DNA from: Candidatus Elulimicrobium sp.
GTDB lineage: Bacteria > Patescibacteriota > Minisyncoccia > Phycocordibacterales > UBA918
Assembly (NCBI GenBank): GCA_022730015.1
Contig: DZBU01000001.1
Span: 1,307 to 65,306 of the forward strand
DNA: 64,000 nucleotides
Direction: 5' to 3'
Of the stretch, positions 934-63,152 are shown piece after piece; positions within the stretch are counted from its first letter, which is position 1; every line of letters begins with the position of its first letter. Made by a program: the position numbers and the translations under genes. A model generated the notes under the pieces. That model saw nothing but the letters and a program-made list of their open reading frames with translations. It was not told the DNA's origin and made no database searches.

Positions 934-3900
934 TTGGTGCATTGTGTAGTGAAGAAAAAACATCCTTACAACACAAACGGAAACAGAATAATAACGATAT
1001 TTAAGGCGCCAAAATGGATATTGCAGCGTTTTTCTAGTGCCACGTATGTACTATTTTTGATATTTACCCTGTTGGTATTTACCCATGCTGAAACCGCTTT
1101 TTCTAAACGACCGCTCGAGATAACATTTGGCACTCAGCAAACTCTCAATTTATTCCCAACTCAGGTTAATACCACTGATTGGGCTGGTATTGAAAACGTG
1201 CTTATCCAAGACCTTACTGACACAGCGTTGTATCAAGATTTTGGTGCTCGTACCTCAGCATACGTACCACAAGAAAAGTTGATCATTCCGAGCTCAGCGG
1301 GAGTGCCTACTGAGTATGTTCCGGTAATCGAAGGCGCGACGGCATCGTCTGTCGTAGACGGTCAGGCTGTTCCTGAGGAGGGCGGGGCTGGTGTCATAGG
1401 AAGTCAACCTGAAGTAGTGGCTCCGATCGAACCTACTCCAGAACAACTACCAGTAGAGACACAAGTTTCACCAGAACCAGGAGCAGTCTTAGAACCACCA
1501 GCAAATGAAAGTGTTGTTGAGCCAGTATCGATGATCGAGCCGAGCTCGACAGCCGTTTTCGCACCAGCCTGGGGACTGTTTCCGCTAGCGCAATTATCAG
1601 TCGTGACTTCAACAGAGACTGCCGCTCAAGATATTGTGGATGTCGCAGCGCCTACCGAAACAGCACAAACACCTGATACAGCTATCGTTGAAGACCTCTC
1701 TCAGCCGATCAGTGGCGTCGAGCAGGTGGTGGGGGTCGTATCGACTTCATCTGAAAGCGCGGCACCAGAACAATCATCTGCTGAAACTACGGTTACTGAA
1801 GGATCTGTTGTACCGCTAGCAACGCCAGCTGCCGCTACTGTAGAAACAGAAGTTCACGAGATCACTCTTTCAAATTTTGGTAGTGCACCACTTGAGCCTG
1901 GTCAGTTTGTTAACGGTATGCGTTTGACTCTTTCACTCGCTGCGCAGCTTGAGCAGCCGGCATCGGGAAGAATTCCGTACATTGAAGTATTGTATGGTGC
2001 TTCAAGTACACCCGAAGTGGTTGGTATGATCTTGCTCGAGGACGAGGTTTCAAATGCACTCAATGGCGGATACTTTTTCTTTGCGTTGCCGACTGTCTCA
2101 GATGTCTCGGAACTAGCAGATAAGACAGTCACCTTGCGCTACCATGGTGCGCACGATGACCTTGACGGCATGTTCCTTGATGCGGTTTGGCTTGAGATCG
2201 ATACTCGCACTGTTACCAAAGAAGACCTTCGTGCTCGTGGAATTGCCGGAGCGCTTGCAGAGTTACAACTTCCTTCAGTTACTACGCTCATTAGTGAAAA
2301 ATCAAATTTCCGTCGCGACGAGAATCCGATTTTCAACCTTCGCTATAATTCTCAGCGTAATTTCATCGTCCGCGGCCTGCGTCATATGTTTGGTCGAGAG
2401 CTGGTGTCGGTGGAATCAGTTGAGGTGCGTCATCGGTCGTTTGGATCGCTCGGCATCGAGCCAGAACTCACTGTTACCAAAGACGGTCTTTTGACCATCG
2501 AAATTCCTGATGCTTCGCTCAAAAACATGCGTCCAGGAGCATACGAGATCACTCTTACACTCAACGAGGGAGGACGAGAATTCACTGACACTTTTGATTT
2601 CCAGTGGGGAATCTTGACCATGAACCCGAATAAGTCTGAGTACCAAACGGGAGAGACGGCACATATTTCAATCGGAGCGTTGACGCCAAATGGTCATACG
2701 ATCTGTGAAGCGGCTCTCGATCTCTATGTGACCGACCCGACAGGGATAATCTCTCGCTACGCTGTGAATCCATCGGGTCAGTGTAACGGTAACAATGTGG
2801 TCGATGTGCCTGATTTCAGTGCACTGGTACCGGTAGTTGAACCTGGTGTTTATGAATTATACCTAGAGCGTCTAGATGATGCTGGTGCGGTGCTTGGTTT
2901 TACTACTGATACATTTAACTCTGTTACAAATCAAGAGTTGTCAATCGAGCGCACTGGTCCAACTCGTATCTATCCACCAGCACCGTATCCGATGACGTTG
3001 ACCGTTTCAACGACTAAATCATTTATCGGTACACTCACTGAAACCGTACCAGCTAGCTTTGGTATTTATGATACTGACGCGTACATTGTTTCAGACGGTG
3101 TGTGGCAGACACTGACCTGGGATCTTTCTATCCTCGGCGCTGGTAAGGAGAGTGTGAGCTATCGCTTTGATGCCCCAGACATTTCACCGTATCTATTTAC
3201 ACTCGGTCCGGCACGACTCGATACTGAGAGAGTTGCTCCAGCCGACATACCAAACGCCTCGACTTCGGCTACAAGCTCACCAGGGATTTCTTCTCCAGGT
3301 ACGAACGTATTCATCGAACATCGCCGCTGGCAGATCGCTTCTGACGCGGTAGGTAAGATGTTGCTTTTCTGGCCAGACGGAGCGACCGTACCGGCCGGTT
3401 GGCTGTGTGTGTCGTGTACTTCTGGCGAGCCATTCTTCCAGCGTTTTGTCATGGGTAGCTCAACCTACAATACTACTGGTGGTGCAGCTACACATACTCA
3501 TACTGCAACTGGCTCGGTGCTTGCTACTTCAGACATCACAACTGAAAACACGGGATCAGGTGTAATCGCAATCGGTACGCACACCCATACGTATACTCCT
3601 ACGATTAGTGCCGTTTCTAATTTGCCAGCATACCGACAGTTACGAGTGATCCGCTACGATGCTGCAGCAGGGGAACCACCAACTATTCCAGCCGGCGCGA
3701 TTGGCGTCTTTGATGTTGCCTCTTCCTCGCTACCAAGTGGCTGGAATCGTTATGCAGCGCAAGATGGTCGGTACATTTATGGTGAAAACACGCCAGGTAC
3801 AACTGGAGGATCAAATACTCATACTCACACCATTACTGGTACAGTCGATGCTGCTTCAGGAGGAAGCTACCAGAGTCGCGGCCCTGACGCTGCGAACGGT

Positions 3901-6900
3901 TCATCGCCAACTCATACGCACACGGTGAGTAGTAGTACGGGCAGTGTTTCAAACGAACCACCATACATAGAGGTTTTGCTTGGACAGATCACTAGTGATG
4001 CAGTGCCGCCAAACGGTCTCATTGCTATGTGGGATGAGGCAGTCGATAGTGGTTGGCTAGATGTTTCTTCTGGTCCTACTGATCCATTCAATCAACGTTT
4101 TCTTAAAGCCTCGACCACATATGGCGGCACCAACGACACTCGTTCACATGCGCACAGTAATGTGACGGGACTCACGTCGTCTGTACCGAGTGTTACTGTC
4201 ACTACGGCTCGTGCTGGCTCGGGTGGTGCAAGTGATGTGCACACGCACTCCGTTTCGGTTACTGATTTTTCTATCAGTGATCATCTACCACCGTATCTCA
4301 CGGTAGTCTTTGGGAAACGACAAGGAAATGATCCTGTGTATCAGCAAGTGTCTTCACGTTGGTATACCAACACCAACGCAGAGACACCAACTGATGCGTG
4401 GCCAAGTGGCGCACTTAATCTTATTGAACGTGAGCCGATCACTGCAACGAGTACTCCGGTCAAGGATGGGGATGAAGTTCGATTACGTCTTAATGTTGGG
4501 GTGTTAAATGCGACCTCGACGGTTGGCAGTAGTTTTAAATTGCAGTACGCAGCAGCTGCGGTGTGTAGCACGGCAACTGGCTGGGCAGATGTTGGTGATA
4601 CGGCTTCAACGACTCTGTGGCGTGGCTATAACAATACCTCGGTAAATGATCATGTGACACTGTCGACTTTACTCTTGAGTTCTTCAACAGTTACCGCAAC
4701 GTATGAAGAAAATGGATACGCGACCAGTACCCCAAACAATATTCCTGTCGCTGGGTATGGTGAGTGGGATTTTGTCTTGCAGCAAAATGGCGCACTAGCG
4801 GGCACTAACTACTGTTTCCGTTTAGTAGAGAATGATGGAACAGCTTTCCTTTCCTATACACATTATCCGCAGCTTTACACCAACGAAGCGCCGGCTGCTC
4901 CAGCGCTCCAAAAATTATTTGATAACGAAAAAACGGCTTCTACCACCCCATGGTTCTACTTCCTTGCGACTGATGCTGAGGGTGAGAAGGTGCATTACGA
5001 GATTGAGATTGATAATGATTTTACCTTTGCTTCACCGGTTATTGATCGTAATACCATTTCTAATTCTGCAGAGTTTGAAAACCAAGTTCTCATTTCTGAT
5101 AAGGCACCGTTTAGACAAGGTGAGTTGATTGAATTTATCCCTACCACCGCACTCAGTAACGGCACGACATACTATTGGCGTGTACGTGGCCAAGATCCAG
5201 AAGGGTCAGCTGATTGGGGTGAGTGGTCGACTATTCGAAGCTTTACTATCGATAATACTCTCGACGCGAGCGCTTGGTACCAGACTCAAGATGAACAGTT
5301 TGATACAAATATACTTGCTGGCGTACAGACAGGAAGCGATCAGATGGTGCTTATCAGTGGTTCTTCAACTGGTTCGATGATCAGTACACCGATTGATTTC
5401 ACTGATGGTGATCGTGGTACTGCGTGGGATAGCTTAGTGTTTGCTGATACGGAAACCACTGGCTCGATCTCATACCAAATTCAGTATCTCGATAACACAA
5501 GTACGTGGACACTCGTTCCAGAGAGTGCGCTCCCAGGAAACGGTACTGGCTTCGGCACATCACCGGTGTCACTGCTTGGACTTGATGTCGGAGTATACTC
5601 ACAGTTGCGCATTATCGCGAACTTCACCAATACTGGCGGTTCACCATCACTACAAGATTGGACGCTATATTGGGGTTATCGAGTAGAGACTCCGATCATT
5701 GCAAAGCTTTTCCCGAATGAGCAAGTGGGTACTACCACGCCATCATTTGAATTCAGAACCAGTGATCCGCAAAGTGACAGTTTGACCTACCAAATACAAT
5801 GGTCGCTAACCCCAGATTTCGCAGCATCAACGACTCGCTCATCTGATGTTGATCTTGGTTTTTCAAATATTGATGCTGGTGCTGATCTTGACCCGTTTAA
5901 TTCGGATGACAGTATCCAATTTACACTTCAGTCTGCTGACGCGCTGACGGGTACGACTACCTACTGGTGGCGAGTACGCGCTAAGGACACGACCGGTGAT
6001 AACGCGTGGTCATTTTGGACAGATGCACAAAGCTTTACTGTCATTCCAGGTACTGAGGTCTCTACTTGGTTCCAAACTACCGAGGAGCAATTTGCCAGTA
6101 ACATTCTCTCTGGAACGATTGCTCTGGCCTCTGACGCGGTGTCAGTAGCTACTACCGCAAGTGAAGCGATGATCGTCTATGGTGAAGGAACCGAAACAGC
6201 GCCACGATACAGACAATGGGACGGTACGAATTTGAGTACGGAAAGCACGCTTCTCGATATTGGTGCGCCAACCAGATGGGCAGTCGTACGAGCTGCCACT
6301 ACTCGGGAAGAATATGTAGCAGCAACTGTAGGAACAGATGCTGACGTGAATGTCCAAGTGTTTGCCACTGGGGAATGGGGAAATCAGGTAGAACTGACAA
6401 CAAATGTTGGAAGTGTTGCTGCTCGTGGGATTGATGTCGCGTACGAGACAACTTCTGGTGATGCTTTGGTCGTCTACTGCGACGGAGATGCTGATCCTAG
6501 CTATTATCTATGGGACGGAACAAGTTGGACAAGTGGTGGCACCATTAATCTCGCGTCTACAAATAATTGTGAATGGATTAAACTAGCTTCAGATCCGGTT
6601 TCTAACGAGATCATCCTAATGGCCCGTGATTCAGATGGTACTGTAGCTACTTCCTATGAGTTACAAGTTTGGAACGGATCTGCGTGGGGTAACTCTACAA
6701 CGCAGGGTGGTGCACGAAACAGCGCGTACGAAACCATGGCGCTTGGCTATGAAGCTAGTGGCGGTCAGGCGCTCTCAGTTTCTGGCGATGGTAACCCAAT
6801 ACGATTTGAATATAACAGTTGGAACGGTACCGCTTGGGCCGGTCTTACTACGAATACTACGATTACGGATAACCTGATCTGGGCTGAATTGAGCAATGAT

Positions 6901-9900
6901 GATGGTACCGATAATATGGCGATGTGTTACGTCAACGAATCAACAAATATTGGAGCGATCCGTTGGAACGGTACTGCATGGACGGGACAAACTAATCTTG
7001 ATACGGCTGGCAATTCTATTGCAGATCGCTCAGTTTCTTGTGTCTATGAAACTACAGCTGGTCGTGATGGTAACCTGCTTGCTGTCTATAGCGACACAAC
7101 TAATGCCCGTTACCAGGTTTGGAATGGCACGACATGGTCAGCTGAGGCATCAATTGGTACGATTACAAGTGTGTCCACTATTCAGGCGATTCGAACGGGA
7201 GCAGGTAGTGTCCTTGGTCTATTTTACGATGATGTAAATGATCGTATCGACTTTTCAGCTTGGAACGGTACGACATGGAGTACAGCAGCAACGATCGAGG
7301 CAAATGGTTCAGTTGATGCGGCGCCATATGGACAACCATTCTTTGCTGCACCACGCAACGATGGTACTGAAGGTACCACCATTGTTAGCCCAGGTGTGGA
7401 TTTCAACGCCGGAGTAGGACCATACTGGAAGACATTCTCATGGAACGATACTGTGCCGGGAACAAGTCAAATTCTATATCATTTGCAGTATCAGACGGCG
7501 ACGGGCAGCTGGGCATTTATTCAGAATGCTGCCTTGCCGGGTAACGAAGTAGGAACGACGACTGGCCCGTTCGATCTTTCTGCTCTCGATACAAATACAT
7601 ACAATGTTATTCGACCGTATGCTGAACTTTCTTGTGACGGATCAGGAAACTGTCCTTCGATTGAAGATTGGAAGATCGAGTGGGCGGGTGGTATTACTAT
7701 TTCAGGTGCCATCCAAGGATATGACCAATCAACAAACGTAACGAGCGGTACCGTCGCTGTGTCGGTCAATGGTGTTTTACAAACTGGAAAGACAGGTGCT
7801 GTTAGTGGCGGTACATGGAGCATTAGTAACGTTACGGTATTCCCTGGGGATGTGGTTTCAGTTTTTGTTACCGCAGCAGCGGATTCGAATGAAGCAGTGG
7901 CAATCGCTCGGTACGATGGGCAAGGAGATATGGATGGTTTGGTTTTGTACGAACGACATCTCACGCTTGGCTCGAATGATGCGACAACCACACCATTCAC
8001 GAATGCTGACATTGGACTCTATGATTCCACAAACACGGAAGACGTATTTTTTGCTGTAACTACTGATACGCTTTCGGTCTGTGCTGCTGGTGACTGTACT
8101 GATGCTGAGTTGTTTATCAAATCGGGAGCATACTACACTCCGGGAGGACGTATCGTAACGCATGATTTTGAAAATAACGGTACTTTCACTGCCGGCTCAT
8201 TCACGCACGAAATAAATGGATCTTGGGACAATAATGCGACAACGACCATGACTGGTTCAGCTGTTGTCTTTGCTGCCACTAGTACAACCGAGACGATTGA
8301 TAGTACTGGGGCGGTAAGTGCAAGTTTCAACAATACTACCTTTGGTACTACGACGGGAAGTGGAGTATGGAATCTCCCTTCCGAACTAGATGTAAACGGC
8401 AATCTAACTGTGTCCCTCGGTACGTTGGCGCGCGGTTCAACTAGCATCACGATAGGTGGCAATTTGGTCACTGGCGCCAATGGATATTGGACCGGCATTG
8501 GCACTACGACTTTTGATGGTGGCACGGCTGCAACGTGGAATGATCAAAACACAACAAAACAAAATGTCGGGCGGGTGGTAATAGATGGTACTAGCAAGGC
8601 AGTCAGTTTGGCTGGCAATGTCGCGACTGAGTCTGTGACCATTGGTACCAATGACACCTTTGATGCTTCGACGGGTAGCTATGACATCATGGTCTATGAC
8701 AGTTGGCTCAATCAAAACAATTTCGTAGCACGTAGTGGTGAAGTTATCTTTGCCGCAACTTCTAGTGGTAAGACCATCACGACAACAGGAGATGCGTTCT
8801 ATGACTTGTCCTTCACTGGTGTAGGTGGCGGTTGGTCGTTCACCGAGTCGACGTTACTGGTGAATAATGATCTCACTATTGCGACCGGAACAGTGACATT
8901 ACCAACCGCCACCACAACTATTGCTGGATCATTCAATGCAACTGGTGGTTCGTTTGCACATAATAATGGAACGCTGTACTTCACTTCGGCGGCGGCAGAA
9001 ACAATCACCTTCAATGGCGGTTTATTCACCAACGTCGCCCACGATCTCACTTTTAATGGTGGTGGTAGCTGGACCGTGAATGATACTAATGCTACGAGCA
9101 CTAACGATGTACGGGTGACTCAAGGTACGCTTAATTTCCCGACTGGCGTCTTCGCAATCGGCGGTACGCTGGTAGATGGTGGTGGTGTGTACACAGGCGG
9201 TGTAGGAACGGTACTTTTTTACAGCAGTGCAGCTGAGGTGCTTACTCCTGGTGGTTCGAGTTTTAATAATGTCACGTTTGCTGGCTCCGGTTCCTGGTCG
9301 TTCTCAGACTCAAACGTAGATGCAAATGGTGATTTGGTGGTACAGCAAGGAATACTCACTTTGCCAAATGGCGCCTTTACCTTGGGTGGCTCATATGACA
9401 ACAATGCAACGGTTGTACCTGGTACTGGGGTGCTCACCTTTGATGCGGCGGGTACCGGTAGGACTGTCGATTTTGGTGCCTCGAGCTTGTATGACGTTGA
9501 CTTTAATAGTGCGACTGGTGGTTGGACCGTCACCGCACCAGCTACGACAACACGCAATTTCTCTCTCACAAATACCGATACATGGACACTTGCGAGCGGA
9601 CAAGTGCTTTCAGTTGCCGGTACGTTTAGTAATAGCGTGGGTGGTGCCTCTACTACCTGGACTGGTTCGGCACTCAGTCTAGAAGCTGGAAGCTATAGTC
9701 TCAATACCAAGACTAACAATGGAGACACTTACGAGACAGTGAGAATTGCAGCCGGCACAAACATAGCGATGTGGAATTCATCAGCTGCATCATATACGGT
9801 TGACGCTGCTGGCTCACTTTACTCACAAGACCATGCTGGAATCGATGGTGACCTATACATCTTTGGAGCGTATACAAGAGGTAGTGGCACAGAGTATTGG

Positions 9901-12900
9901 AGTTACACTCAAGACTTCGATGGCGCTAGTCTTTCTGGAAGTGAGCGTCAAGTTGATGTTCGCTTTGCCTCTGGTGCGAGTGCGACTTTTTCTGGGGCAA
10001 CAGTTGAAGTAATCGGAACAAGTACTGCTTCTACAACGATCGCCAACCAGGGCGCTGGTACTTACGCTGTAAATGTTAGTGGAGGCACAACAACGGCGCA
10101 GTATTATGAGTTCGCTGATCTTGGTTTAACTGGTGTAACTCTTAGTAATGCGGTACAAGTTTCTGAGCTCAGTGACGGTTCCTATACGGTTGCTGCTCCA
10201 GGGGGCACAGCACTCACGCTTTCTTCAACAACCATCGATGCGAACCCAGGCAAGCAGATATTTAACGTTACTTTTGCTACGACAACAGTTATTACGGCAA
10301 CAAACGTCACCCAAAATGATGGAGTACCGTCTTCGTTCTGGTGGTTCCGTGATGGCTACGGAAATCTCTACGGCGAGGGGTACGACAATGATACTGGCGA
10401 TCCTGGTTCAGTGCGCTTTGATGATAGTTCACTGGTGATCACTATTGTTGGTACGGTGTACAGTGATGCGGGAACGACACCTATTGTCGGTGGTACTTGT
10501 GACGGAATCACTCCGGTAGTACGAGTAATGGTTGGTGGAGTGCTTGCTACAACAACCAGCTGTAGTAATGTCGATGGTTCATACACAGCCTCTGGTGTGG
10601 TAGTGATTGGTGATCCAACTGTTACTGTTTTCCTCAATGACGCTTCGGGTGGACAAAAGGGAAGTACAATCACTCGGACACCAACTGGAGACATCCTCGA
10701 TATGGATATTTACACCAATCGTGTAATCGTTCGTAATGAAGATATTGATGCACTAACCATTGGAAACTTGGCTGCATATGATAGTAGTGATGATGCTGAC
10801 TTACGCTTCAGTGCGGCAACCTCTACTAGTGTTGATAGTTTGAATGTGTTTGCTGGCAATGAGCTCTTTGTCTTTGCTTCGTCGACTTTTACACCAGGTG
10901 GGGTAGTGACGCTCGCGGCGAATACGGCCGCCAATAGTTACGATGGTACGTTGTATCTAGCTGGTGATGCGACGTTCAACGCACACAGTACCTCGACCGT
11001 AACGATTGGCGGCCGCCTCGAACTCGAAGCTGGTGCGGTCTTCAATGCCGCGAGCACGACCGTACTTATGAACGCCACAACGTCTGGCAAGAGTATCACT
11101 GCACCGAGTGAGATTATGTTCAATGAGCTCGTCTTCAATGGGGTGAGTGGCGGTTGGAATCTAGGGGCTGACATTCGCGTGAATGGTGATATGACCATCA
11201 CAGCTGGTACGGTCACTGGTACTGGTGATATCTATCTGCCAAACGGTTCGCTCTACGGTAATGGTGTGCTTTCACTTGGTGCTGGTACAACCACGCTCGC
11301 GGCCGCTAATTCACTTGGTGGCAATAGTGCTTGGACCTTCTATGATCTTGAACTTGGAGACACGCTCCAGGTCGGTACTACCACACCACTTTTCACTAGT
11401 ACCACCACCGTCTCTGGTCGTCTTACTATCAATGCTGCTCATTATCTTGATGCTGGTAATACAAGTTGGGATCTCTCTGGAGCCGGCATCGTCTTTGTAG
11501 AGAATGGCACTTTTATCGAAGATACCAGCACGATCCGCTACAGTGGCGCCGGCGCCAGTGTGCTCGCTACTCAATATTACAACTTAGACATCAACGCTGG
11601 TGCCAGCTCACAAACCTACATCGCGACTGGTCTTGGACTTATCGTCGATAATGATCTCACGATTGGTGGTGACGCCGCATCAACATTCGATCTCGCTACC
11701 AACGATCCGCTGCTCGATGTCAATGGTGATGTGATCATTCACAGTAATGGCACTTTGGCTGCAAGCGATACGGGCACGTTCACCATTGCGGGGAGTTATG
11801 ATAATAATGGTGTTTTTACCAGTAACTCTGGAACAACTACTTTCGATGGTTCAGGTGCAACCACAATCGCTGCGGGAAGTAGCAGTTTTGGTTCGGTGCT
11901 TGTCAATGGGACTGGCAACGTGACCGTGAGTGAGCATGCAACGGCAACCAGCAACTTCACGTTAAATGCCGCCAATACCTTCACAGTCTCGAGTGGTCAG
12001 TCACTCGCGATCGGCACAAAATTCTTTAATGCGATTGGTGGTGCAGCGACCACTTGGACTGATTCGACCCTTCGTCTTTACGGTGGTGGTAACTACAGTA
12101 TCAATGTCGCAACTACCAGCGACACGTACGCTACGCTAGATATTGAAGGCACGACGCAGATACGCATGTGGAATTCTGATGCTGCTACCTACGATGTTGC
12201 TTCAACCGGTTCGCTGTACTCACAAGACCATGCCAGTGTTGATGGTGATCTGTATATCTGGGGTGCGTACAACCAAACTAATGCCAACGATTACTGGAGC
12301 TATGTGACTGACTTCGATGGTGCCGCACTAGGCAGCCCACGCAAGGTCGATGTGTACCTTGCCTCGGGTGCGAGTGTGACCGTGACTGGTGGCACCTTTG
12401 CAGTATTCGGCGGCACCACGGCATCAACAACAATCCAGAATCAGGGTTCTGGCTCATATGGAATCGTTGTTGGTGGCAATGCGTCGTCTTCGTTTGAATA
12501 TGCAGAGACGCGTGATATGAACAGCGCTGGCCTTACTTTTACTGGCGGAGCCAAGGTCAACAAACTCTCCTACAATGATTTTTCTGTTTCGCAAAACGGC
12601 GGCACCACAATTATGATCGGTGGCACTGTCATCACTGCCAATCCAGCTAAAAACTTTACTAATAATCGGTTTTGGCTTGATGGTGTTGGTAGCGGCTTCA
12701 ACGTGACAGCGACGGGTACTAGCGTCAGTTCATGGCGTTTCGTGAATCATTACGGTGACATTGACGGTGAGTCATTTGATGTAGATCCAAACGGCGACCC
12801 AGGCTACGTCGCGTGGGATAATTCTGCCGCTCTTATCACCATTTCAGGTAATGTGTACAGCGACGAGGGTTCGACTGTTTCGGGCGTTTGTGACGGAACG

Positions 12901-15900
12901 ACAGGCAATATTCGTCTGGTGGTGGCTGGACTTTCGTCTGCTACCTCAAGTTGTAATGCTAGTACCGGCTACTACCAATTCACTAATGTTGCGTACGGCC
13001 CGACCGATCCGTTGATTGTCTACATTGACGGGGAAACCGAAAAGGGAACTTCAGTCACTAAGGAACCAGTTTCTAACATCAACGATCTTCATGTTTATGA
13101 AAATCGAATTATCGTTCGACACGAAAATACCGATCCAATGACGGTCGCTGACATGGCAGTTTACGATTCATCAGATGATGCAGATGTTCCATTTACTGCA
13201 GTAGATTCTGGTACGGACACACTGACGCTTCCAACTAATCGTAAATTACTCGTCTGGACCAATAAGGAATTTGCACCAAATGGTAATGTCACGGTCAGTG
13301 GTGGTGGAGCCGGTGCAGCCTACGATGGCACTCTTGAGCTTCAAACTGGCGCGACTTGGTCTGGCTCGGGAGCTGAATCGCTAGATATTGGTGGTAGCTT
13401 ACTGGCTGGTTCTGGTGCAGCTTTTGTGTCTGCAAACAATGGTACGACAACATTTACTACGACTGGCGCTAATCGTACTATCGACCTCAATGCCGCTGAT
13501 CTCAATAATGCTGCCTTTACCGGAAGTGGCAGCTGGACGGTTACTGACACAACATTTACCGTTGGTGGCAATTTTACGCAAACTAATGGTGTCCTCACTT
13601 TCCCTACCGCAACGACAACTTTCGGTGGTTCATTACAGGTTAGCGGTGGTAGCTTTAATTCAAATAACGGAATCACCCTCTTTAACGGTAGTGGTGCTCA
13701 GGTGATTGCACTGGCTGGTTCTTCGCTGGCAGCGGTGCAGTTCGTGAGTGGTAATTACAGTTTTAGCGATACGGCAGCGACTACTACCAAGTCGATTACT
13801 ATCTTGGGTGGAACAGTAACACTCCCAAGTGGTACGCTCACTGTTGGTGGAGACTTCGAAAACGTTGCAGGCGTTATCGCACACAACACGAATGAACTTA
13901 TCATGACGAGCACAACTATCGCACTCGTGCAGGCGTCTAGTTCAGACTTATACAGTGTTCGCTTTACTGGCGGTGGTGCCTATGAATTTACCGATGATAG
14001 CATCGCGTTACTTGGTAGTCTTACAATTGATGCTGGAGCGGTGCAGCTGGCTTCGGGTACGCTTTCAATCGGTGGCACCTTTGACGCTGCTGGTGGCACA
14101 TTTGATCACGCCACTGGTACGATCCTTTTCAATTCAGCCGATGGGGGAGAGTTCGTCGATGCTGGTGTTAGTCCTTTCTATAATGTTTCATTTAGTGCAC
14201 CCGCAGGCGGATACACGCTTGTGAGTGACGCTACGACTACCAATCACTTCACCCTGTCAGCTGTGAACAGTTTCACCACCCTTAGTGGTACGACGCTGGT
14301 TGTACAAGGAGTCTTCCTCAATCAGGTTGGTGGTGCTAATACCAACTGGGCTGGTAGCACCCTAGTGCTTGATGGAGCAAATGCATACACAGTAAATACT
14401 AAAATCGCTGGCGGTGATCAGTACGATACGCTTATCGTTGGTGAAAATAGTGACATTCGATTCTGGAATTCGGCAGCTACTACGACTACAGTTAATCAAA
14501 GTGCTTCAGTGTACTCACAAGATCACGCTAGTGCTAACGGTAGCCTTTACATTTTTGGTGATTTCCATATAGGGACTACAACTGAATACTGGAGTTATGC
14601 GACTGATTTTGATGGTTCCTCACTTACTGGTAGTGAACGATTAGTAACTGTTGCACATGCAACCAACGCCACGACGTCAGTTGATGGTGGTACGCTTCGA
14701 ATAGTTGGTATTACTGGGAATGAGACGACAATCACTAATCAGGGTACTGGCACCTATGCACTCAATGTTTCGGCTGGTACCTTGTTGGCACAATATTACA
14801 AATTCCGAAATCTTAATATTGAGGGACTTGCTCTCACAGGAACTCCCGTCATATCATCACTTGCATACGGAGATTTCGAATTGGCAGTATCAGGAGGCAC
14901 ACTCATGACAGTGGCATCAACCACACTCAACGCAAACGCCTCAATGGTATTCACAGGAAATCGTTTTGCTACTACCACCGCGATCACTGGTTACAACGTA
15001 ACATTAGTTGGTTCAACGAGTAATGCGTGGACTTTTGTCTCACATACAGGCAACTTAGATGGAGAAGATTTCGACGCTGATGGTGTGACAGCTTGTGGTT
15101 CGATCCGCTGGAGTGACAGTGCGTGTCTTCTTACCCAGCAGACGAACTATCGCTGGCGCAATGATGATGGGGGGCTCGGAGTACCAAATAATGAGTGGTA
15201 TGACGCAAGCTGGGACGCCCGCACATTTATTCGTGTAAGAAATGTTGATGCTACGAGCTATACTGATGCGGTGGTGAAAGTACCGGTTACTTACGATAGT
15301 GACATGCAAGCAGACTTTGATGACCTTCGTTTCACTGCAGGCGATGGAACAACAGTGCTTTCACACTGGCTTGGTTCTTCAACGGATAGTATTGCAGCTG
15401 AAGTTTGGGTAAAGATCCCTACGCTTGCTGCTGAGAGTACGACAAACATCTTCATGTACTACAACAATCCGTCTGCTACGACGATCAGCTCGAGTACGGC
15501 AGTCTTTATTGCTGCTGACGATTTTGAAACTGGTTCACTTGCTGCCTACAGTGGTCAGACGAGTCTCTTTACCGTCGGTACCACTTTCGCCAATGACGGT
15601 GTGTATGGGCTCGATAACAGCGGTGATGAAAGTGGCAGAGCTAATACTGGTGGTATCTATCGTTTCGATCAGGTGGTTGGCCAAGGGGAAACTTTCCGCT
15701 ACGCTCAATATGTCGATACTGTCGCAGGTTCTGGCGATGAAACCTGTACACTTTTCGGTGTTCAGTCACCTGGTTCCACCAACGAAAATTATGCAGTCTG
15801 TATTGAGCAATTCGGAACAGATCGTCTATCGTTGGTCCGTGATGCGATCGATAATGACACCTCAGGTGTGGTTTTGGCTTCCACGACAGTGAGTTACGCA

Positions 15901-17424
15901 ACGGGTTGGTATACCGTGGAGGTTGATTGGGGAATTGACGACAGTTTCTTAGTCTCGCTATATGATGCCTCAGGGACTTTAGTTGCGACAACTTCCGCTA
16001 CCGATAGTAATTATTCTACTGGTGGTATTGGATTTACTTACTGGTTTCATTACGGTGGTTGGGATAGTGTCAGCTCTCGCCCAACATTAACAACGGAACC
16101 AACAATACTGCTTGGTGTAGAGCAGACTGATGGAGGCGCAACCTGGAAAGCAGCGCAAAACACTGCTGCTACTTATGATACGAGTGATGTTGCTCGACTG
16201 CGCTTCGCGATTGAAAATACCGGTCTTGCCATTGTTGATCAACAATTCCTTCTTGAGTATGCATCGATGGACAGCGCTCCAAGTTGTGAAGCGGTCGATC
16301 CAACTGCCTATATTTCAGTACCTGTACAGGCAAGTTGTGGTACTGCTCCAGTGTGTATGCAATCGTCCACGCTCATTACCAATGGTGCAGGAACGATTGA
16401 TCTTCTGACTGGGGTGGAAGGAGTGTTTGTTCCTGGCGAAGCTCGCGAAGATCCAACAAATATCACTAGCGCGATCGATATCGATCAGAATCAATACACT
16501 GAACTGGAATACGCAATCACTCCGACCACAAACGTTACTGATGAAAACCTTTGTTTCCGAGTTACCGATAATGGTGCTGAATACGATACGTATCTCCAGG
16601 TGGCTCAAATGAATCTGCGCTTCGTGCCGGTGGTCAGTACGATCACTTTGAATGATGGTCAACCGATCTCGCTCTTGCCAGGAACTACCACTAGGGTTTA
16701 TGCGACAGGTACCGTAAGTGATCTTAATGGCTATGCAGATTTGGTGTACGCGACTTCAACTATCTATCGTGGTGGTGTTGCTGGTGGAGCATCGTGTACA
16801 CCAAACAATAACAACTGTTACGTTTCTACGACAGAAACAGCGGCTTGTTCGTTTGTCGATTGTTTGGGTGAAAGTTGCACGGTCGAGTGTTTCGCTGATA
16901 TTTATTTCCACGCTGACCCAACCGATGCTGGTGATTACGTGGGACAAGAATGGTTTGCTTTTGTTGAAGTAGAGGACGCTACTGCTGGGTATGATTTTGC
17001 AACCTCACCTGGAGTGACCCTGAGCACTCTCCGAGCGATCGAAGTAAATGGTGCGATCGACTATGGTGCACTCGCGGTGAATGCTGATACTGGATCGTAC
17101 AATGCATCAACATCGATTTTAAATCTTGGTAATGTGGGAATCGATATTGAAATCACAGGTACTGATCTTTCGGACGGTCTCTCATCGGTTATTCCGGTTG
17201 ATAAGCAAAAGTTCGCTACCTCTACCTTTACGTACTCAGCCTGTGGTGCAAGTTGTGAATTGCTTTCAAGTACAACTCCAGTCTCGATTGATGTCGATCT
17301 TGGTAAACCAGCGACTGATAATCCACCAATTTCTGATGATGTCTATTGGGGTATCGCGGTACCGATCGGTGTCAGTAGTGTGCCTCACCAAGGAATTAAC
17401 GTCTTTACGCCAGTCACACCGTAA
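934..17424 (+). CDS. Giant secreted multidomain surface/adhesin-like protein (5,496 aa as tracked). The likely true start is TTG 1021, giving MQRFSSATYVLFLIFTLLVFTHA|ETAF as a signal peptide.
   Basis: Single uninterrupted ORF of 16.5 kb. It has a signal-peptide-like h-region, a P/E/V/T-rich linker, recognisable domains (see findings) and a C-terminal module shared with three other proteins in the window. Confidence 0.85.
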   Translation: MVHCVVKKKHPYNTNGNRIITIFKAPKWILQRFSSATYVLFLIFTLLVFTHAETAFSKRPLEITFGTQQTLNLFPTQVNTTDWAGIENVLIQDLTDTALYQDFGARTSAYVPQEKLIIPSSAGVPTEYVPVIEGATASSVVDGQAVPEEGGAGVIGSQPEVVAPIEPTPEQLPVETQVSPEPGAVLEPPANESVVEPVSMIEPSSTAVFAPAWGLFPLAQLSVVTSTETAAQDIVDVAAPTETAQTPDTAIVEDLSQPISGVEQVVGVVSTSSESAAPEQSSAETTVTEGSVVPLATPAAATVETEVHEITLSNFGSAPLEPGQFVNGMRLTLSLAAQLEQPASGRIPYIEVLYGASSTPEVVGMILLEDEVSNALNGGYFFFALPTVSDVSELADKTVTLRYHGAHDDLDGMFLDAVWLEIDTRTVTKEDLRARGIAGALAELQLPSVTTLISEKSNFRRDENPIFNLRYNSQRNFIVRGLRHMFGRELVSVESVEVRHRSFGSLGIEPELTVTKDGLLTIEIPDASLKNMRPGAYEITLTLNEGGREFTDTFDFQWGILTMNPNKSEYQTGETAHISIGALTPNGHTICEAALDLYVTDPTGIISRYAVNPSGQCNGNNVVDVPDFSALVPVVEPGVYELYLERLDDAGAVLGFTTDTFNSVTNQELSIERTGPTRIYPPAPYPMTLTVSTTKSFIGTLTETVPASFGIYDTDAYIVSDGVWQTLTWDLSILGAGKESVSYRFDAPDISPYLFTLGPARLDTERVAPADIPNASTSATSSPGISSPGTNVFIEHRRWQIASDAVGKMLLFWPDGATVPAGWLCVSCTSGEPFFQRFVMGSSTYNTTGGAATHTHTATGSVLATSDITTENTGSGVIAIGTHTHTYTPTISAVSNLPAYRQLRVIRYDAAAGEPPTIPAGAIGVFDVASSSLPSGWNRYAAQDGRYIYGENTPGTTGGSNTHTHTITGTVDAASGGSYQSRGPDAANGSSPTHTHTVSSSTGSVSNEPPYIEVLLGQITSDAVPPNGLIAMWDEAVDSGWLDVSSGPTDPFNQRFLKASTTYGGTNDTRSHAHSNVTGLTSSVPSVTVTTARAGSGGASDVHTHSVSVTDFSISDHLPPYLTVVFGKRQGNDPVYQQVSSRWYTNTNAETPTDAWPSGALNLIEREPITATSTPVKDGDEVRLRLNVGVLNATSTVGSSFKLQYAAAAVCSTATGWADVGDTASTTLWRGYNNTSVNDHVTLSTLLLSSSTVTATYEENGYATSTPNNIPVAGYGEWDFVLQQNGALAGTNYCFRLVENDGTAFLSYTHYPQLYTNEAPAAPALQKLFDNEKTASTTPWFYFLATDAEGEKVHYEIEIDNDFTFASPVIDRNTISNSAEFENQVLISDKAPFRQGELIEFIPTTALSNGTTYYWRVRGQDPEGSADWGEWSTIRSFTIDNTLDASAWYQTQDEQFDTNILAGVQTGSDQMVLISGSSTGSMISTPIDFTDGDRGTAWDSLVFADTETTGSISYQIQYLDNTSTWTLVPESALPGNGTGFGTSPVSLLGLDVGVYSQLRIIANFTNTGGSPSLQDWTLYWGYRVETPIIAKLFPNEQVGTTTPSFEFRTSDPQSDSLTYQIQWSLTPDFAASTTRSSDVDLGFSNIDAGADLDPFNSDDSIQFTLQSADALTGTTTYWWRVRAKDTTGDNAWSFWTDAQSFTVIPGTEVSTWFQTTEEQFASNILSGTIALASDAVSVATTASEAMIVYGEGTETAPRYRQWDGTNLSTESTLLDIGAPTRWAVVRAATTREEYVAATVGTDADVNVQVFATGEWGNQVELTTNVGSVAARGIDVAYETTSGDALVVYCDGDADPSYYLWDGTSWTSGGTINLASTNNCEWIKLASDPVSNEIILMARDSDGTVATSYELQVWNGSAWGNSTTQGGARNSAYETMALGYEASGGQALSVSGDGNPIRFEYNSWNGTAWAGLTTNTTITDNLIWAELSNDDGTDNMAMCYVNESTNIGAIRWNGTAWTGQTNLDTAGNSIADRSVSCVYETTAGRDGNLLAVYSDTTNARYQVWNGTTWSAEASIGTITSVSTIQAIRTGAGSVLGLFYDDVNDRIDFSAWNGTTWSTAATIEANGSVDAAPYGQPFFAAPRNDGTEGTTIVSPGVDFNAGVGPYWKTFSWNDTVPGTSQILYHLQYQTATGSWAFIQNAALPGNEVGTTTGPFDLSALDTNTYNVIRPYAELSCDGSGNCPSIEDWKIEWAGGITISGAIQGYDQSTNVTSGTVAVSVNGVLQTGKTGAVSGGTWSISNVTVFPGDVVSVFVTAAADSNEAVAIARYDGQGDMDGLVLYERHLTLGSNDATTTPFTNADIGLYDSTNTEDVFFAVTTDTLSVCAAGDCTDAELFIKSGAYYTPGGRIVTHDFENNGTFTAGSFTHEINGSWDNNATTTMTGSAVVFAATSTTETIDSTGAVSASFNNTTFGTTTGSGVWNLPSELDVNGNLTVSLGTLARGSTSITIGGNLVTGANGYWTGIGTTTFDGGTAATWNDQNTTKQNVGRVVIDGTSKAVSLAGNVATESVTIGTNDTFDASTGSYDIMVYDSWLNQNNFVARSGEVIFAATSSGKTITTTGDAFYDLSFTGVGGGWSFTESTLLVNNDLTIATGTVTLPTATTTIAGSFNATGGSFAHNNGTLYFTSAAAETITFNGGLFTNVAHDLTFNGGGSWTVNDTNATSTNDVRVTQGTLNFPTGVFAIGGTLVDGGGVYTGGVGTVLFYSSAAEVLTPGGSSFNNVTFAGSGSWSFSDSNVDANGDLVVQQGILTLPNGAFTLGGSYDNNATVVPGTGVLTFDAAGTGRTVDFGASSLYDVDFNSATGGWTVTAPATTTRNFSLTNTDTWTLASGQVLSVAGTFSNSVGGASTTWTGSALSLEAGSYSLNTKTNNGDTYETVRIAAGTNIAMWNSSAASYTVDAAGSLYSQDHAGIDGDLYIFGAYTRGSGTEYWSYTQDFDGASLSGSERQVDVRFASGASATFSGATVEVIGTSTASTTIANQGAGTYAVNVSGGTTTAQYYEFADLGLTGVTLSNAVQVSELSDGSYTVAAPGGTALTLSSTTIDANPGKQIFNVTFATTTVITATNVTQNDGVPSSFWWFRDGYGNLYGEGYDNDTGDPGSVRFDDSSLVITIVGTVYSDAGTTPIVGGTCDGITPVVRVMVGGVLATTTSCSNVDGSYTASGVVVIGDPTVTVFLNDASGGQKGSTITRTPTGDILDMDIYTNRVIVRNEDIDALTIGNLAAYDSSDDADLRFSAATSTSVDSLNVFAGNELFVFASSTFTPGGVVTLAANTAANSYDGTLYLAGDATFNAHSTSTVTIGGRLELEAGAVFNAASTTVLMNATTSGKSITAPSEIMFNELVFNGVSGGWNLGADIRVNGDMTITAGTVTGTGDIYLPNGSLYGNGVLSLGAGTTTLAAANSLGGNSAWTFYDLELGDTLQVGTTTPLFTSTTTVSGRLTINAAHYLDAGNTSWDLSGAGIVFVENGTFIEDTSTIRYSGAGASVLATQYYNLDINAGASSQTYIATGLGLIVDNDLTIGGDAASTFDLATNDPLLDVNGDVIIHSNGTLAASDTGTFTIAGSYDNNGVFTSNSGTTTFDGSGATTIAAGSSSFGSVLVNGTGNVTVSEHATATSNFTLNAANTFTVSSGQSLAIGTKFFNAIGGAATTWTDSTLRLYGGGNYSINVATTSDTYATLDIEGTTQIRMWNSDAATYDVASTGSLYSQDHASVDGDLYIWGAYNQTNANDYWSYVTDFDGAALGSPRKVDVYLASGASVTVTGGTFAVFGGTTASTTIQNQGSGSYGIVVGGNASSSFEYAETRDMNSAGLTFTGGAKVNKLSYNDFSVSQNGGTTIMIGGTVITANPAKNFTNNRFWLDGVGSGFNVTATGTSVSSWRFVNHYGDIDGESFDVDPNGDPGYVAWDNSAALITISGNVYSDEGSTVSGVCDGTTGNIRLVVAGLSSATSSCNASTGYYQFTNVAYGPTDPLIVYIDGETEKGTSVTKEPVSNINDLHVYENRIIVRHENTDPMTVADMAVYDSSDDADVPFTAVDSGTDTLTLPTNRKLLVWTNKEFAPNGNVTVSGGGAGAAYDGTLELQTGATWSGSGAESLDIGGSLLAGSGAAFVSANNGTTTFTTTGANRTIDLNAADLNNAAFTGSGSWTVTDTTFTVGGNFTQTNGVLTFPTATTTFGGSLQVSGGSFNSNNGITLFNGSGAQVIALAGSSLAAVQFVSGNYSFSDTAATTTKSITILGGTVTLPSGTLTVGGDFENVAGVIAHNTNELIMTSTTIALVQASSSDLYSVRFTGGGAYEFTDDSIALLGSLTIDAGAVQLASGTLSIGGTFDAAGGTFDHATGTILFNSADGGEFVDAGVSPFYNVSFSAPAGGYTLVSDATTTNHFTLSAVNSFTTLSGTTLVVQGVFLNQVGGANTNWAGSTLVLDGANAYTVNTKIAGGDQYDTLIVGENSDIRFWNSAATTTTVNQSASVYSQDHASANGSLYIFGDFHIGTTTEYWSYATDFDGSSLTGSERLVTVAHATNATTSVDGGTLRIVGITGNETTITNQGTGTYALNVSAGTLLAQYYKFRNLNIEGLALTGTPVISSLAYGDFELAVSGGTLMTVASTTLNANASMVFTGNRFATTTAITGYNVTLVGSTSNAWTFVSHTGNLDGEDFDADGVTACGSIRWSDSACLLTQQTNYRWRNDDGGLGVPNNEWYDASWDARTFIRVRNVDATSYTDAVVKVPVTYDSDMQADFDDLRFTAGDGTTVLSHWLGSSTDSIAAEVWVKIPTLAAESTTNIFMYYNNPSATTISSSTAVFIAADDFETGSLAAYSGQTSLFTVGTTFANDGVYGLDNSGDESGRANTGGIYRFDQVVGQGETFRYAQYVDTVAGSGDETCTLFGVQSPGSTNENYAVCIEQFGTDRLSLVRDAIDNDTSGVVLASTTVSYATGWYTVEVDWGIDDSFLVSLYDASGTLVATTSATDSNYSTGGIGFTYWFHYGGWDSVSSRPTLTTEPTILLGVEQTDGGATWKAAQNTAATYDTSDVARLRFAIENTGLAIVDQQFLLEYASMDSAPSCEAVDPTAYISVPVQASCGTAPVCMQSSTLITNGAGTIDLLTGVEGVFVPGEAREDPTNITSAIDIDQNQYTELEYAITPTTNVTDENLCFRVTDNGAEYDTYLQVAQMNLRFVPVVSTITLNDGQPISLLPGTTTRVYATGTVSDLNGYADLVYATSTIYRGGVAGGASCTPNNNNCYVSTTETAACSFVDCLGESCTVECFADIYFHADPTDAGDYVGQEWFAFVEVEDATAGYDFATSPGVTLSTLRAIEVNGAIDYGALAVNADTGSYNASTSILNLGNVGIDIEITGTDLSDGLSSVIPVDKQKFATSTFTYSACGASCELLSSTTPVSIDVDLGKPATDNPPISDDVYWGIAVPIGVSSVPHQGINVFTPVTP
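3300..4330 (+). repeat. Three tandem phage tail-collar (MdpB-like) domain repeats inside the giant ORF.
   Basis: Three units of the form '...P.GW(L)...C..C/...FxQRF..GxxxxYGGT...THTHT' each end in 'PPY[IL]xVL/VFG': 'PAGWLCVSCTSGEPFFQRFVMGSSTYNTTGGAATHTHT', 'LPSGWNRY...GGSNTHTHT...PPYIEVLLG', 'DSGWLDVSSGPTDPFNQRFLKASTTYGGTNDTRSHAHS...PPYLTVVFG'. Confidence 0.6.
6160..7330 (+). repeat. Seven ~50-aa 'W[ND]GTxW' repeats, a predicted 7-bladed beta-propeller, inside the giant ORF.
   Basis: YRQWDGTNL, YLWDGTSWT, QVWNGSAWG, NSWNGTAWAG, IRWNGTAWTG, YQVWNGTTWS, SAWNGTTWS occur at regular ~50-55 aa spacing. Confidence 0.5.
8070..15120 (+). repeat. Three divergent tandem intragenic super-repeats (~2.3-2.4 kb each; the third is truncated). 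Each is a PATR-like parallel beta-helix section, then a 'W[TA][GD]S.L.L.G..Y..N......Y.T..........WNS.A.......S.YSQDHA...G.LYI[FW]G' domain, then a carboxypeptidase-regulatory-like 'VYSD.G...V...CDG' domain.
   Basis: Protein-level register anchors: WTGSALSLEAG at nt ~9660, WTDSTLRLYGG at ~12052, WAGSTLVLDGA at ~14348. All three copies contain 'SLYSQDHA', and the DNA shows 'tactcacaagaccatgc' and variants. The beta-helix parts show 'NVTFAGSGSWSF...GTLTLP.G.F..GG' type ~25-aa periodicity. Confidence 0.55.
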
Positions 17425-19014: not shown

Positions 19015-19075
19015 GCAGACTACATCTGTGGATGGAAGAGAGTGATATTTGTGTGGGCGATGCAATAATAGGGTA

Positions 19076-23696: not shown

Positions 23697-24644
23697 ATGG
23701 TTAAAATCCTGCGTAATCTCCTGATGATTGTTCTTCTAATGCCAGTGCTTTTTGTGAGCCTTGGTGTCACAGAAGTATTTGCCGGTTTCGGAATTACGCC
23801 TCCTTATGTTAGTAATACTAGCCTGACTAGAAATTCTACTTACGAACAGCAAGTCCTTCTAGTTCGTAGTGAAACTAACATTTCGCAGAAAGCGGAAATT
23901 ACTATTGATGCACCTGAGATACAAGATTGGATTCAAATTGTTGAAGGTGATGTCATCAAGATGCCTCGAGGTGAACAAAAGGTCCCAATGACCGTCCGTA
24001 TCACGGTACCTGAGGATGCTGAATTCAAGGATTATAAAGGAGCTATCCGTATCAGAACACTTCCTGATGACGATCAGGTTGCGCCTGGTGCAGTTAGTAT
24101 TTCTCTTGGTGCTCTGGTCGATATTGATCTGTCAGTCATTGATCGAAAGATCTTTGATTTTAGTGTGCGTAAGATCTCAGCTGCTGACCTCAATGAAGGA
24201 CATAAGCTTTTCTGGTTGTTCTTCCCTGGAAAGATCAATTTCGATATGATGATTGAGAATACGGGTAACGTCGATATTGTTCCGAGTAAAGTAGAATTCC
24301 GTATCTTTGATCGAGCTGGGAAGGTGTTGCTCGAAGAAACAAAGAATATTGGTAAAATCAAAAAGATTAAACCGTACGCCACGGAAACGGTGACGGCAGA
24401 ACTCCCAACCCGTTTACCCGCAGGTAGTTATGTGGCACGTTACCGAGTCTTCAACGGTGAGGATGTCAAACATGAAGGTGATATTAGTTTAAATATTCTT
24501 GCGGCGGGTACATTAGAGACTGCTAATTTCGGTTTTGCTGGACTCTCAATTGCTCATAAGGTATCAGTCTTGCTGCCTGTGTTTGCTCTTATCATTGCTG
24601 CAATCTATATCTGGCACATGCGTCGTCGATCATCAAGAAGGTAG
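23697..24644 (+). CDS. DUF916-like cell-surface protein: signal peptide, ~270-aa ectodomain, C-terminal TM helix and a short basic tail.
   Basis: N-terminus MVKILRNLLMIVLLMPVLFVSLGVTEVFA. The ectodomain starts 'GFGITPPYV...' in the same pattern as the 38900 and 39894 proteins. C-terminus VSVLLPVFALIIAAIYIWHMRRRSSRR. Confidence 0.65.
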   Translation: MVKILRNLLMIVLLMPVLFVSLGVTEVFAGFGITPPYVSNTSLTRNSTYEQQVLLVRSETNISQKAEITIDAPEIQDWIQIVEGDVIKMPRGEQKVPMTVRITVPEDAEFKDYKGAIRIRTLPDDDQVAPGAVSISLGALVDIDLSVIDRKIFDFSVRKISAADLNEGHKLFWLFFPGKINFDMMIENTGNVDIVPSKVEFRIFDRAGKVLLEETKNIGKIKKIKPYATETVTAELPTRLPAGSYVARYRVFNGEDVKHEGDISLNILAAGTLETANFGFAGLSIAHKVSVLLPVFALIIAAIYIWHMRRRSSRR

Positions 24645-28310: not shown

Positions 28311-28319
28311 AAAATCATT

Positions 28320-30080: not shown

Positions 30081-30086
30081 ATCATT

Positions 30087-30773: not shown

Positions 30774-30778
30774 TCGCC

Positions 30779-60973: not shown

Positions 60974-60976
60974 CAA

Positions 60977-63147: not shown

Positions 63148-63152
63148 CAAAT

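Follow-up and report, generated by a model that had tools for sequence, protein, structure and literature searches.

Results

Giant gene and whole-length conservation

The DNA analyzed here, a 64,000-nucleotide stretch (the window) of contig DZBU01000001.1 from Candidatus Elulimicrobium sp. (assembly GCA_022730015.1), carries a gene for a giant protein of about 5,490 amino acids (aa). On balance, sequence comparison and structure models favor this protein being a very long extracellular fiber of the Parcubacteria/Paceibacterota cell, for attaching to other cells. The protein is conserved from end to end in relatives, contains a repeated HxH module also found in phage proteins, and is encoded at the head of a conserved gene cluster.

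On the forward strand, positions 934 to 17424 form a single stop-free frame of 5,496 codons counted from the first in-frame start, TTG934. A frame of this length at 47-50% GC excludes a chance origin. Residues are numbered with TTG934 as aa 1, i.e., nt = 934 + 3(aa-1). A GTG937 start with a 5,495-aa product was called in NCBI assembly GCA_973318325.1 (103.7-kb contig) and in Logan SRR407182, so the single intact open reading frame (ORF) noticed in an earlier, sequence-only reading of this DNA is confirmed by two other assemblies. The true start is probably GTG949, which gives about 5,491 aa, because the N-terminus of ortholog P0001 (MKKKH...) aligns at aa 6, the GTG949 codon. The start proposed by the sequence-only reading, TTG1021, falls within the conserved basic N-region and is probably too far downstream.

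The JGI contig 3300000228 corresponds to window positions 7452-27586 without gaps and with one mismatch, at 18657, outside the giant gene; its identical 7452-17424 stretch takes in all three super-repeats of the protein. The sequence-level cross-assembly check thus spans 7452-17424, and the remainder of the gene is supported by the matching 5,495-aa gene call. The three assemblies are independent as assemblies, but their source reads may be common, so the data are not necessarily independent. At the DNA level the super-repeats have only 56-nt seeds in common, at 71-75% identity. Core copies are 58-60% identical between orthologs (versus P0303) and 41-47% between paralogs; the super-repeat triplication is therefore old. 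With low DNA identity and an old triplication, collapse or expansion of the super-repeats by the assembler is unlikely, and misjoined repeats, a concern raised with the first description of the frame, also disagree with the identical JGI sequence across them. Position 18657 is C in the window and T in the JGI and Logan assemblies, and position 21118 is G in the window and A in the NCBI assembly. Both differences lie outside the giant gene and probably reflect variation between strains or between consensus sequences.

Full-length collinear orthologs were found by profile search of 1.84 billion cluster representatives, followed by BLAST. There were at least six, of 5,515-6,229 aa and 43-54% identity, i.e., P0303 (5,625 aa, 54%), P0283 (5,649 aa, 46%), P0319 (5,515 aa, 45%), and P0297 (5,997 aa), P0342 (6,229 aa), and P0365 (5,714 aa), each at 43%. 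For P0283, a single high-scoring segment pair joined residues 463-5643 to residues 325-5491 of the giant protein. In the seven-sequence alignment, the modules from aa 450 to the end had 36-53% mean identity and 0-3% gaps (10% in the propeller-like tract). The sole poorly conserved part was the linker at aa 61-310, with 13-20% identity and 16% gaps among orthologs. Judged from these alignments, the whole-length conservation bears the mark of purifying selection acting on the entire giant protein. The C-terminal 757 aa alone had more than 60 homologs with full coverage at 42-69% identity.

HxH module and its phage relatives

Three repeats of about 110 aa, mutually 31-37% identical, were recognized at aa 793-1121. 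In an alignment of 18 diverse copies, each unit contains G-W, F..RF.RG, YG.TGG..THTHT (TGGxxTHTHT), a second HTH, and N-x-PPY, and the histidines of the six HxH motifs in the module are invariant or nearly so. Structure models were made with AlphaFold2 (AF2) for this module (aa 793-1135) and for aa 5040-5496. The HxH model (pLDDT 82.7, pTM 0.78) suggests that the three units pack as one compact body.

In a Foldseek search of this model against BFVD, the best matches were Pas29 (E 1e-14) and Pas28 (E 3e-14) of Actinoplanes phage phiAsp2, with a TM-score of 0.60. The next matches were annotated as 'tail fiber protein' (3e-3) and 'phage tail collar domain containing protein' (3e-2). With hhalign, the HxH profile was aligned to these two phage proteins with probabilities of 98.8% and 99.0% and E values of 4e-17 and 3e-18, motif upon motif. 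By profile comparison and predicted fold, the HxH module is homologous to Pas28/Pas29. The pas28 and pas29 genes come after the putative major tail protein gene in the phiAsp2 genome, and the GenBank note of Pas29 reads 'possible receptor recognizing protein; contains HXHY motifs; similar to phage TuIa tail fiber'.

The module had been described as three tail-collar-like domains. The count of three and the phage link hold, the latter via Pas28/Pas29, whereas membership in the Collar family is not supported. No Pfam Collar (PF07484) match was obtained at E<=1 in the giant-protein tiles or at E<=10 in the 18 module sequences, and hhalign against T4 gp12 gave a probability of 5.7%. There, a 25-column motif, TIPAGAI..FD..LPSGW, alone aligns with gp12 335-360, and this resemblance explains the earlier label.

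Among 50,697 phage records, the phage form of the module was seen in phiAsp2 and in no other; three IMG/VR contigs also carried it. No match was obtained by tblastn of the module against the 50,697 phage genomes, no relatives by an IMG/VR scan with a single HxH protein as query, and no useful match by a PDB sequence search with the HxH profile. In PHROGs, a tail-fiber family was touched by 1 of the 18 module sequences, at 9e-4. The family PF21722 (Gly_rich_2) was considered as the identity of the module and rejected, as in relatives it is an insertion between HxH units. Outside phages the module is common; it was detected in 3,462 of the cluster representatives with a cut-off of E<=1e-3, and in 562 with one of E<=1e-30. 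It is nearly always complete, with all three units, in host proteins of 325 to 7,246 aa, and the named organisms carrying it include Parcubacteria, Saccharibacteria, Chloroflexota, and Woesearchaeota among others.

The HxH motifs of the trimeric T4 gp37 fiber coordinate iron octahedrally (PMC11705849). By analogy, the six HxH motifs, two per unit in three units, may form two His6 metal sites. These would copy, within a single chain, the HxH iron sites found in trimeric phage fibers.

Conserved gene cluster

A scan with one genome per species placed the C-terminal cassette of the giant protein at 56 loci, all in Patescibacteria (Paceibacterota, Parcubacteria, Kaiser-, Nomura-, Lloyd-, Jorgensenbacteria, and others), and one locus lies on a 994,774-bp chromosome. 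The description of a secreted or anchored mosaic giant in a small-genome lineage therefore stands. At about 45 of the 56 loci, the first frame runs without a stop for at least 3,780 aa, as far as the fetched flank reaches, and is followed by the same neighbor genes in the same order. These are an FN3 protein, an ABC ATPase, a MacB_PCD/FtsX permease, homologs of ORFs 21746-23602 and 23697-24644, and usually a homolog of ORF 26030-27148. Intergenic gaps in the window cluster are 27-103 nt. The C-terminal domain of ORF 21746-23602 is 33% identical to giant aa 5294-5495 and has the same ...YWGIAVP...G.N.FT end.

In three genomes (L014, L026, and L027) the first gene encodes only 985-1,287 aa, with the C-terminal cassette and the rest of the cluster kept. 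Lineages farther removed still have, next to the homologs of 21746 and 23697, a short protein bearing the last domain of the giant. Judged from gene order, the giant gene and its six downstream genes look like a conserved surface-apparatus operon.

N-terminal part and FN3-like units

Of the observations in the sequence-only reading, part was confirmed and part was not, and its interpretation was likewise supported in part; the remaining modules (Table 1) show where. At the N-terminus, aa 32-57 is the sole hydrophobic segment of the giant protein, with no hydrophobic window after aa 57. The signal-type segment reported earlier is thus present and is a putative signal peptide or signal anchor. 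In many orthologs, the basic N-region (aa 6-36) carries a conserved I-x-I-F-(K/R)-A-x-K-x-W motif, for which no Pfam match was found. We take this motif to be reminiscent of the specialized signal peptides of giant Gram-positive adhesins. The reported P/E/V-rich stalk was likewise recovered, as the V/T/A/P/E-rich stretch at aa 61-310.

A precomputed Pfam MG2 match is on record for relatives that align with aa 441-1331. The FN3-like units were verified as two stretches of Ig_Rha78A_N (PF25788), at 45.8 bits against a gathering cut-off of 27.4, and the family was present in 8 of 10 ortholog fragments. A module of about 100 aa (aa 1481-1580) sits between these units and is repeated at aa 2149-2250.

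A hairpin was observed at 867-899, 50 nt upstream of GTG949, with a perfect 15-bp GC-rich stem, a GAA loop, and no U-tract. Its free energy is -34.8 kcal/mol (z -6.3 versus shuffles). It may terminate transcription of the upstream gene or serve a regulatory role.

Table 1. Features of the giant gene and its downstream cluster (nt, window positions; aa, residues of the giant protein)
Feature	Position (nt)	Strand	Residues (aa)	Basis or remark
Giant gene	949-17424	+		probable start GTG949; stop 17422-17424; frame open from TTG934
Basic N-region (~30 aa), hydrophobic helix, THA/ET site	949-1092	+	32-57 (helix)	equivalent segment in all orthologs
V/T/A/P/E-rich low-complexity linker	1114-1863	+	61-310	composition
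Two conserved beta-rich modules	1864-3303	+	311-790	ortholog alignment
Three-unit HxH module	3310-4338	+	793-1135	self-comparison, alignment, AF2 model
Domain X, copy 1	4339-4887	+	1136-1318	also at aa 5051-5232 and within ORF 33372-38894 (1,840 aa)
Two FN3-like units (Ig_Rha78A_N)	4888-6048	+	~1323-1445 and 1586-1705	Pfam
Eight ~50-aa W(N/D)G(T/S)xW repeats	6049-7368	+	1706-2145	composition/repeat pattern
~100-aa module, second copy	7369-7689	+	2146-2252	self-comparison
T/G/N/S-rich three-super-repeat region	7690-15153	+	2253-4740	self-comparison
Super-repeat core 1	9304-10437	+	2791-3168	self-comparison
Super-repeat core 2	11734-12834	+	3601-3967	self-comparison
Super-repeat core 3	13984-15153	+	4351-4740	self-comparison
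DUF2341 domain	15154-15558	+	4794-4869 (Pfam match)	Pfam
Jelly-roll/LamG-like candidate	15559-16083	+	4876-5050	weak SO2946-like_C match
Three all-beta sandwich domains	16084-17421	+	5051-5496	AF2 model
Cluster gene 2, secreted FN3 protein, 520 aa	17452-19014	+		27 nt past giant stop
Cluster gene 3, ABC ATPase	19049-20398	+		synteny
Cluster gene 4, MacB_PCD + FtsX permease	20428-21642	+		synteny
Cluster gene 5, 618 aa, N-terminal hydrophobic segment, giant-like C-terminal domain	21746-23602	+		synteny
Cluster gene 6, 315 aa, signal peptide, C-terminal transmembrane helix then basic tail	23697-24644	+		synteny
Cluster gene 7, 372-aa secreted protein	26030-27148	+		C-terminal 170 aa resemble C-terminus of the 1,840-aa ORF

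Propeller-like repeats and super-repeats

Seven propeller repeats had been reported; eight were counted, the extra one being degenerate and located at W1815. No Pfam or PDB profile match was obtained for these W(N/D)G repeats, including with a blade profile built from orthologs.

Each super-repeat consists of a spacer domain of about 150 aa, then solenoid-like repeats with a period of about 75 aa, then a core of about 380 aa. All three cores share the invariant motif SLYSQDH..GDLYI.G..YWSY..DFDG. The invariant residues seen also in distant relatives are W, S..H in YSQDH, YWSY, D..G, R, and G..GE..D. Going by this pattern, they could be a candidate catalytic or sugar-binding site. The claim of a beta-helix tract of about 2,300 aa in three super-repeats survives as to the super-repeats, given the 41-47% identity of the cores, but not as to continuity, as three non-solenoid domains of about 150 aa interrupt aa 2253-4740.

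Beta_helix, NosD, and Pectate_lyase gave no Pfam match in the giant-protein tiles, and no Pfam beta-helix match was found in the orthologs. The profile of the super-repeat cores matched no solved enzyme or other entry in PDB. BLOSUM autocorrelation gave modest periodicity signals (z 3-4). Because no sequence-profile match was found, the propeller and beta-helix labels are read from the repeat pattern. Two bridges to known beta-helix families were considered and rejected, i.e., PATR in relative P0248, whose best-scoring stretch is outside the giant-aligned segment, and Ice_binding in P0194 and P0105, also outside the giant-aligned segments. A scan of all giant-protein tiles against NCBIfam returned no match, and PDB sequence searches with both halves of the protein, the N-terminal 2,300-aa profile, and the C-terminal profile returned no useful match.

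C-terminal cassette

The cassette opens with DUF2341 (PF10102), as reported, at 65.8 bits against a gathering cut-off of 23.4 in the giant protein and present in 33 of 44 cassette relatives. For the LamG-like domain paired with it in the sequence-only reading, the evidence was divided. No Laminin_G_3 (PF13385) match was found at aa 4876-5050 in the giant protein or its 44 relatives, and SO2946-like_C gave only weak matches (0.005 and 0.0006); it matched the giant protein in this stretch and two of 44 cassette sequences. Relative P0159 has DUF2341 at 80-143 and Laminin_G_3 at 197-375, followed by the same three C-terminal domains, and the alignment into its LamG part is weak (28%). Because Laminin_G_3 occupies the equivalent position in P0159, the LamG-like label is positionally plausible but unproven.

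The three last domains are a second copy of domain X (aa 5051-5232), a Cys-rich Ig-like domain with six invariant cysteines, and a last domain ending YWGIAVP...G.N.FT. An AF2 model of aa 5040-5496, from a 44-sequence alignment, showed three all-beta domains (pLDDT 84.3). Foldseek matches of this C-terminus in PDB were generic tandem Ig-like arrays, i.e., integrin legs, macroglobulin MG domains, CfaB pilin, RbmA, and an archaeal S-layer protein. The giant C-terminus is thus predicted to consist of three Ig-like sandwiches.

WxL domains have two W-x-L motifs within a C-terminal domain of about 160-200 aa. At E<=1 to 10, WxL (PF13731) matched neither the giant C-terminus nor its 43 relatives nor the neighbors, and the conserved C-terminal tryptophans sit in W-F-A and W-G-I. 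With no profile match and generic Ig-array fold matches, a WxL identity is not supported, and the earlier WxL-like label is rejected. No LPXTG was present in the giant protein, which ends ...GINVFTPVTP and has no C-terminal anchor.

Discussion

Proposed function and alternatives

The attachment fiber that we favor would be built as follows. The basic N-region and the single hydrophobic helix would carry the protein through the membrane or hold it there, and the variable P/E/V/T-rich stretch would span the wall as a spacer. An extended shaft, on the order of 100 nm, would be made of beta-rich modules totaling about 5,000 residues. The shaft would display candidate ligand-binding modules, i.e., the HxH module, the eight-repeat propeller-like module, the three aromatic-rich cores, and the C-terminal DUF2341/jelly-roll/Ig cassette. 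The downstream cluster (FN3 protein, MacB-type ABC pair, membrane protein sharing the C-terminal domain, and membrane-anchored partner) may assemble or anchor the giant. As a whole, the fiber would most likely serve to attach to a host or partner cell at its surface, or to recognize that surface. Host attachment, which the sequence-only reading had also proposed, appears the most reasonable function, and very large surface proteins of Patescibacteria have been read as host-interaction proteins in the literature by the same inference (PMC11809585, PMC13059738).

Several points weigh against this interpretation. The profile scans of the giant protein detected no ligand-binding family whose ligand is known. 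The beta-helix and propeller folds are taken from repeat pattern, phage relatives of the HxH module are rare, and the receptor role of Pas29 is putative. The C-terminal domain that the giant shares with ORF 21746-23602 may serve in docking and not as a tip.

A rather improbable alternative is that the protein is a surface-displayed machine for degrading polysaccharide or wall, in which the cores would be tailspike-like depolymerases on a solenoid, digesting the host envelope or matrix for feeding or entry. The core motif (invariant S-x-x-H, YWSY, DFDG, R, E) is strict in the three copies and in distant relatives, as would suit an enzyme, and a preprint (10.1101/2023.11.21.568195) ties giant genes to predatory bacteria degrading cell walls. 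Against it, no glycoside hydrolase, lyase, or peptidase profile matched anywhere in the giant protein or its orthologs, and the core profile retrieved no solved enzyme. Polysacc_lyase was found in the distant relative P0246, which has aa 369-805, two spacer domains, and short solenoid stretches in common with the giant, but this lyase domain lies outside the giant-aligned region. We give similarly little weight to a structural envelope component, i.e., an S-layer-associated protein, sheath, or cell-cell tether assembled by the ABC/FtsX system and having no specific host recognition. The gene does lie within an island of about 40 kb of secreted Ig-, cohesin-, and dockerin-like proteins, in tight synteny with membrane proteins, and the folds that its C-terminal Ig-like domains resemble include those of S-layer proteins and pilins. 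The cluster is, however, kept in the three genomes with a short first gene, so the long shaft is dispensable for the basic function of the cluster, and the giant carries a module common to phage proteins encoded among tail genes.

Delivery of a contact-dependent toxin by an exoprotein of the FhaB/CdiA type is very unlikely. Such a role was proposed for giant Patescibacteria proteins with FhaB domains (PMC11809585), and a long beta-rich shaft is present here too, but Pfam and NCBIfam scans found no haemagglutinin/FhaB, two-partner secretion, PT-VENN, or toxin domain. The C-terminus consists of three conserved Ig-like domains instead of a variable toxin, and the next gene encodes a 520-aa FN3 protein, not a small immunity-like protein. 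Hardest of all to credit is a prophage or tailocin remnant, an assembly artefact, or a pseudogene. The HxH module is shared with phiAsp2, and internal repeats could in principle mislead assemblers; yet the window is without phage genes (the neighbors are UvrB, TGT, tRNAs, and envelope genes), the gene order is kept in about 45 genomes, there are full-length orthologs, the sequence is identical in other assemblies, and the repeats are old, as judged by their closer identity between orthologs than between paralogs.

Beyond the attachment fiber, a bolder proposal is offered as speculation that we consider doubtful. The HxH module may be an unrecognized widespread family (about 3,460 representatives in candidate phyla radiation (CPR) bacteria, Chloroflexota, and DPANN-type archaea), a version of the trimeric phage-fiber receptor tips made from one chain and clamped by metal, and the seven-gene cluster may build a host-attachment organelle. 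If this were true, ultrasmall episymbionts would choose hosts by receptor recognition of the phage type. The giant family bears on how Parcubacteria/Paceibacterota, almost none of which are in culture, locate their hosts and stay attached to them. It offers concrete targets, i.e., a giant surface protein whose conservation spans its whole length, its operon, and a compact, abundant HxH module with phage homologs.

Remaining genes of the window

Upstream of the giant gene, partial ORF 50-760 resembles ORF 28320-30080 at aa 261-360 and 486-578. Regions 24646-25752 and 27264-31522 encode mutually paralogous secreted proteins with weak cohesin, dockerin/EF-hand, and Big_13 matches; this cohesin-dockerin-like set is unusual for a CPR genome. 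ORF 33372-38894 encodes a 1,840-aa secreted protein with no Pfam match and with several stretches matching domain X of the giant. It has its C-terminal 170 aa in common with ORF 26030-27148, both ending ...Y..(S/T).(V/L).Y...P(V)F.

Two paralogous envelope proteins are encoded at 38900-41522, and one start is probably miscalled because the annotated ORFs overlap at 39807-39925. The second (39807-41522) has LytR_C and WxLIP_PGBD, the latter exactly at gathering score and the sole WxL-related signal in the window, 22 kb from the giant gene. Two tRNA-Ala genes were found 2 kb apart, at 60901-60974 and 63075-63148 (anticodons TGC and GGC). The 3' third of the window is occupied by housekeeping genes (TGT, UvrB) and a 901-aa ORF, which confirms a cellular chromosome.

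Comparison with known systems

The likeness to the WxL (Csc) loci of Firmicutes is one window protein with WxLIP_PGBD and LytR_C and its paralog, 22 kb downstream, whereas the giant, 43 cassette relatives, and the neighbors lack a WxL domain and the C-terminal motif is W-G-I. Unlike LPXTG/sortase-anchored adhesins of Gram-positive bacteria, the giant has no C-terminal LPXTG or hydrophobic segment. Unlike RTX adhesins of type I secretion systems, it has no RTX/HemolysinCabind match, and the neighboring ABC system is of the MacB_PCD/FtsX type.

Among phage proteins, the fiber tips T4 gp37 and gp12 are similar in their HxH motifs, threefold repetition, and, near gp12 335-360, an opening T-I-P-x-G-A-I...LPSxW. 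The HxH module differs from them and from PF07484 in that no significant profile match was obtained and its three units stand in one chain, not in a homotrimer. Pas28 and Pas29 of phiAsp2 share the repeated unit G-W ... TGGxxTHxHT ... HTH ... N-PPY. They have 936 and 1,291 aa, the remainder of each is unrelated, the units have longer insertions, and the similarity is undetectable by tblastn.

The surface proteins of other episymbiotic Patescibacteria, such as Absconditicoccaceae (PMC13059738), are very large, bear signal or transmembrane segments, and have been proposed for host recognition, with FN3 there accompanied by concanavalin-type domains. This likeness is by description; these proteins belong to another class of the phylum, and no operon or HxH module was described for them. 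In a survey of 2.1 million proteins, 149 exceeded 4,000 aa, and 82 of those had FhaB and/or DUF2341 (PMC11809585). The present protein shares with them the phylum, the size class, DUF2341, and the inferred role in adhesion or host interaction. Since giant DUF2341 proteins of Patescibacteria are on record, this kind of protein was already known, and the sequence-only view of an undescribed architecture does not extend to the kind. It does hold for the collinear family, its seven-gene cluster, and the HxH module with phage homologs, of which no description was found in the literature searched. For the giants of PMC11809585, no full-length homologs were found, and rapid domain shuffling was suggested. 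The present family, in contrast, lacks FhaB, keeps its collinearity across about 5,000 aa in six or more orthologs, and lies in a conserved operon. Where the literature had pointed to rapidly shuffled mosaics, giant genes in 1-Mb genomes can thus be stable, vertically conserved architectures.

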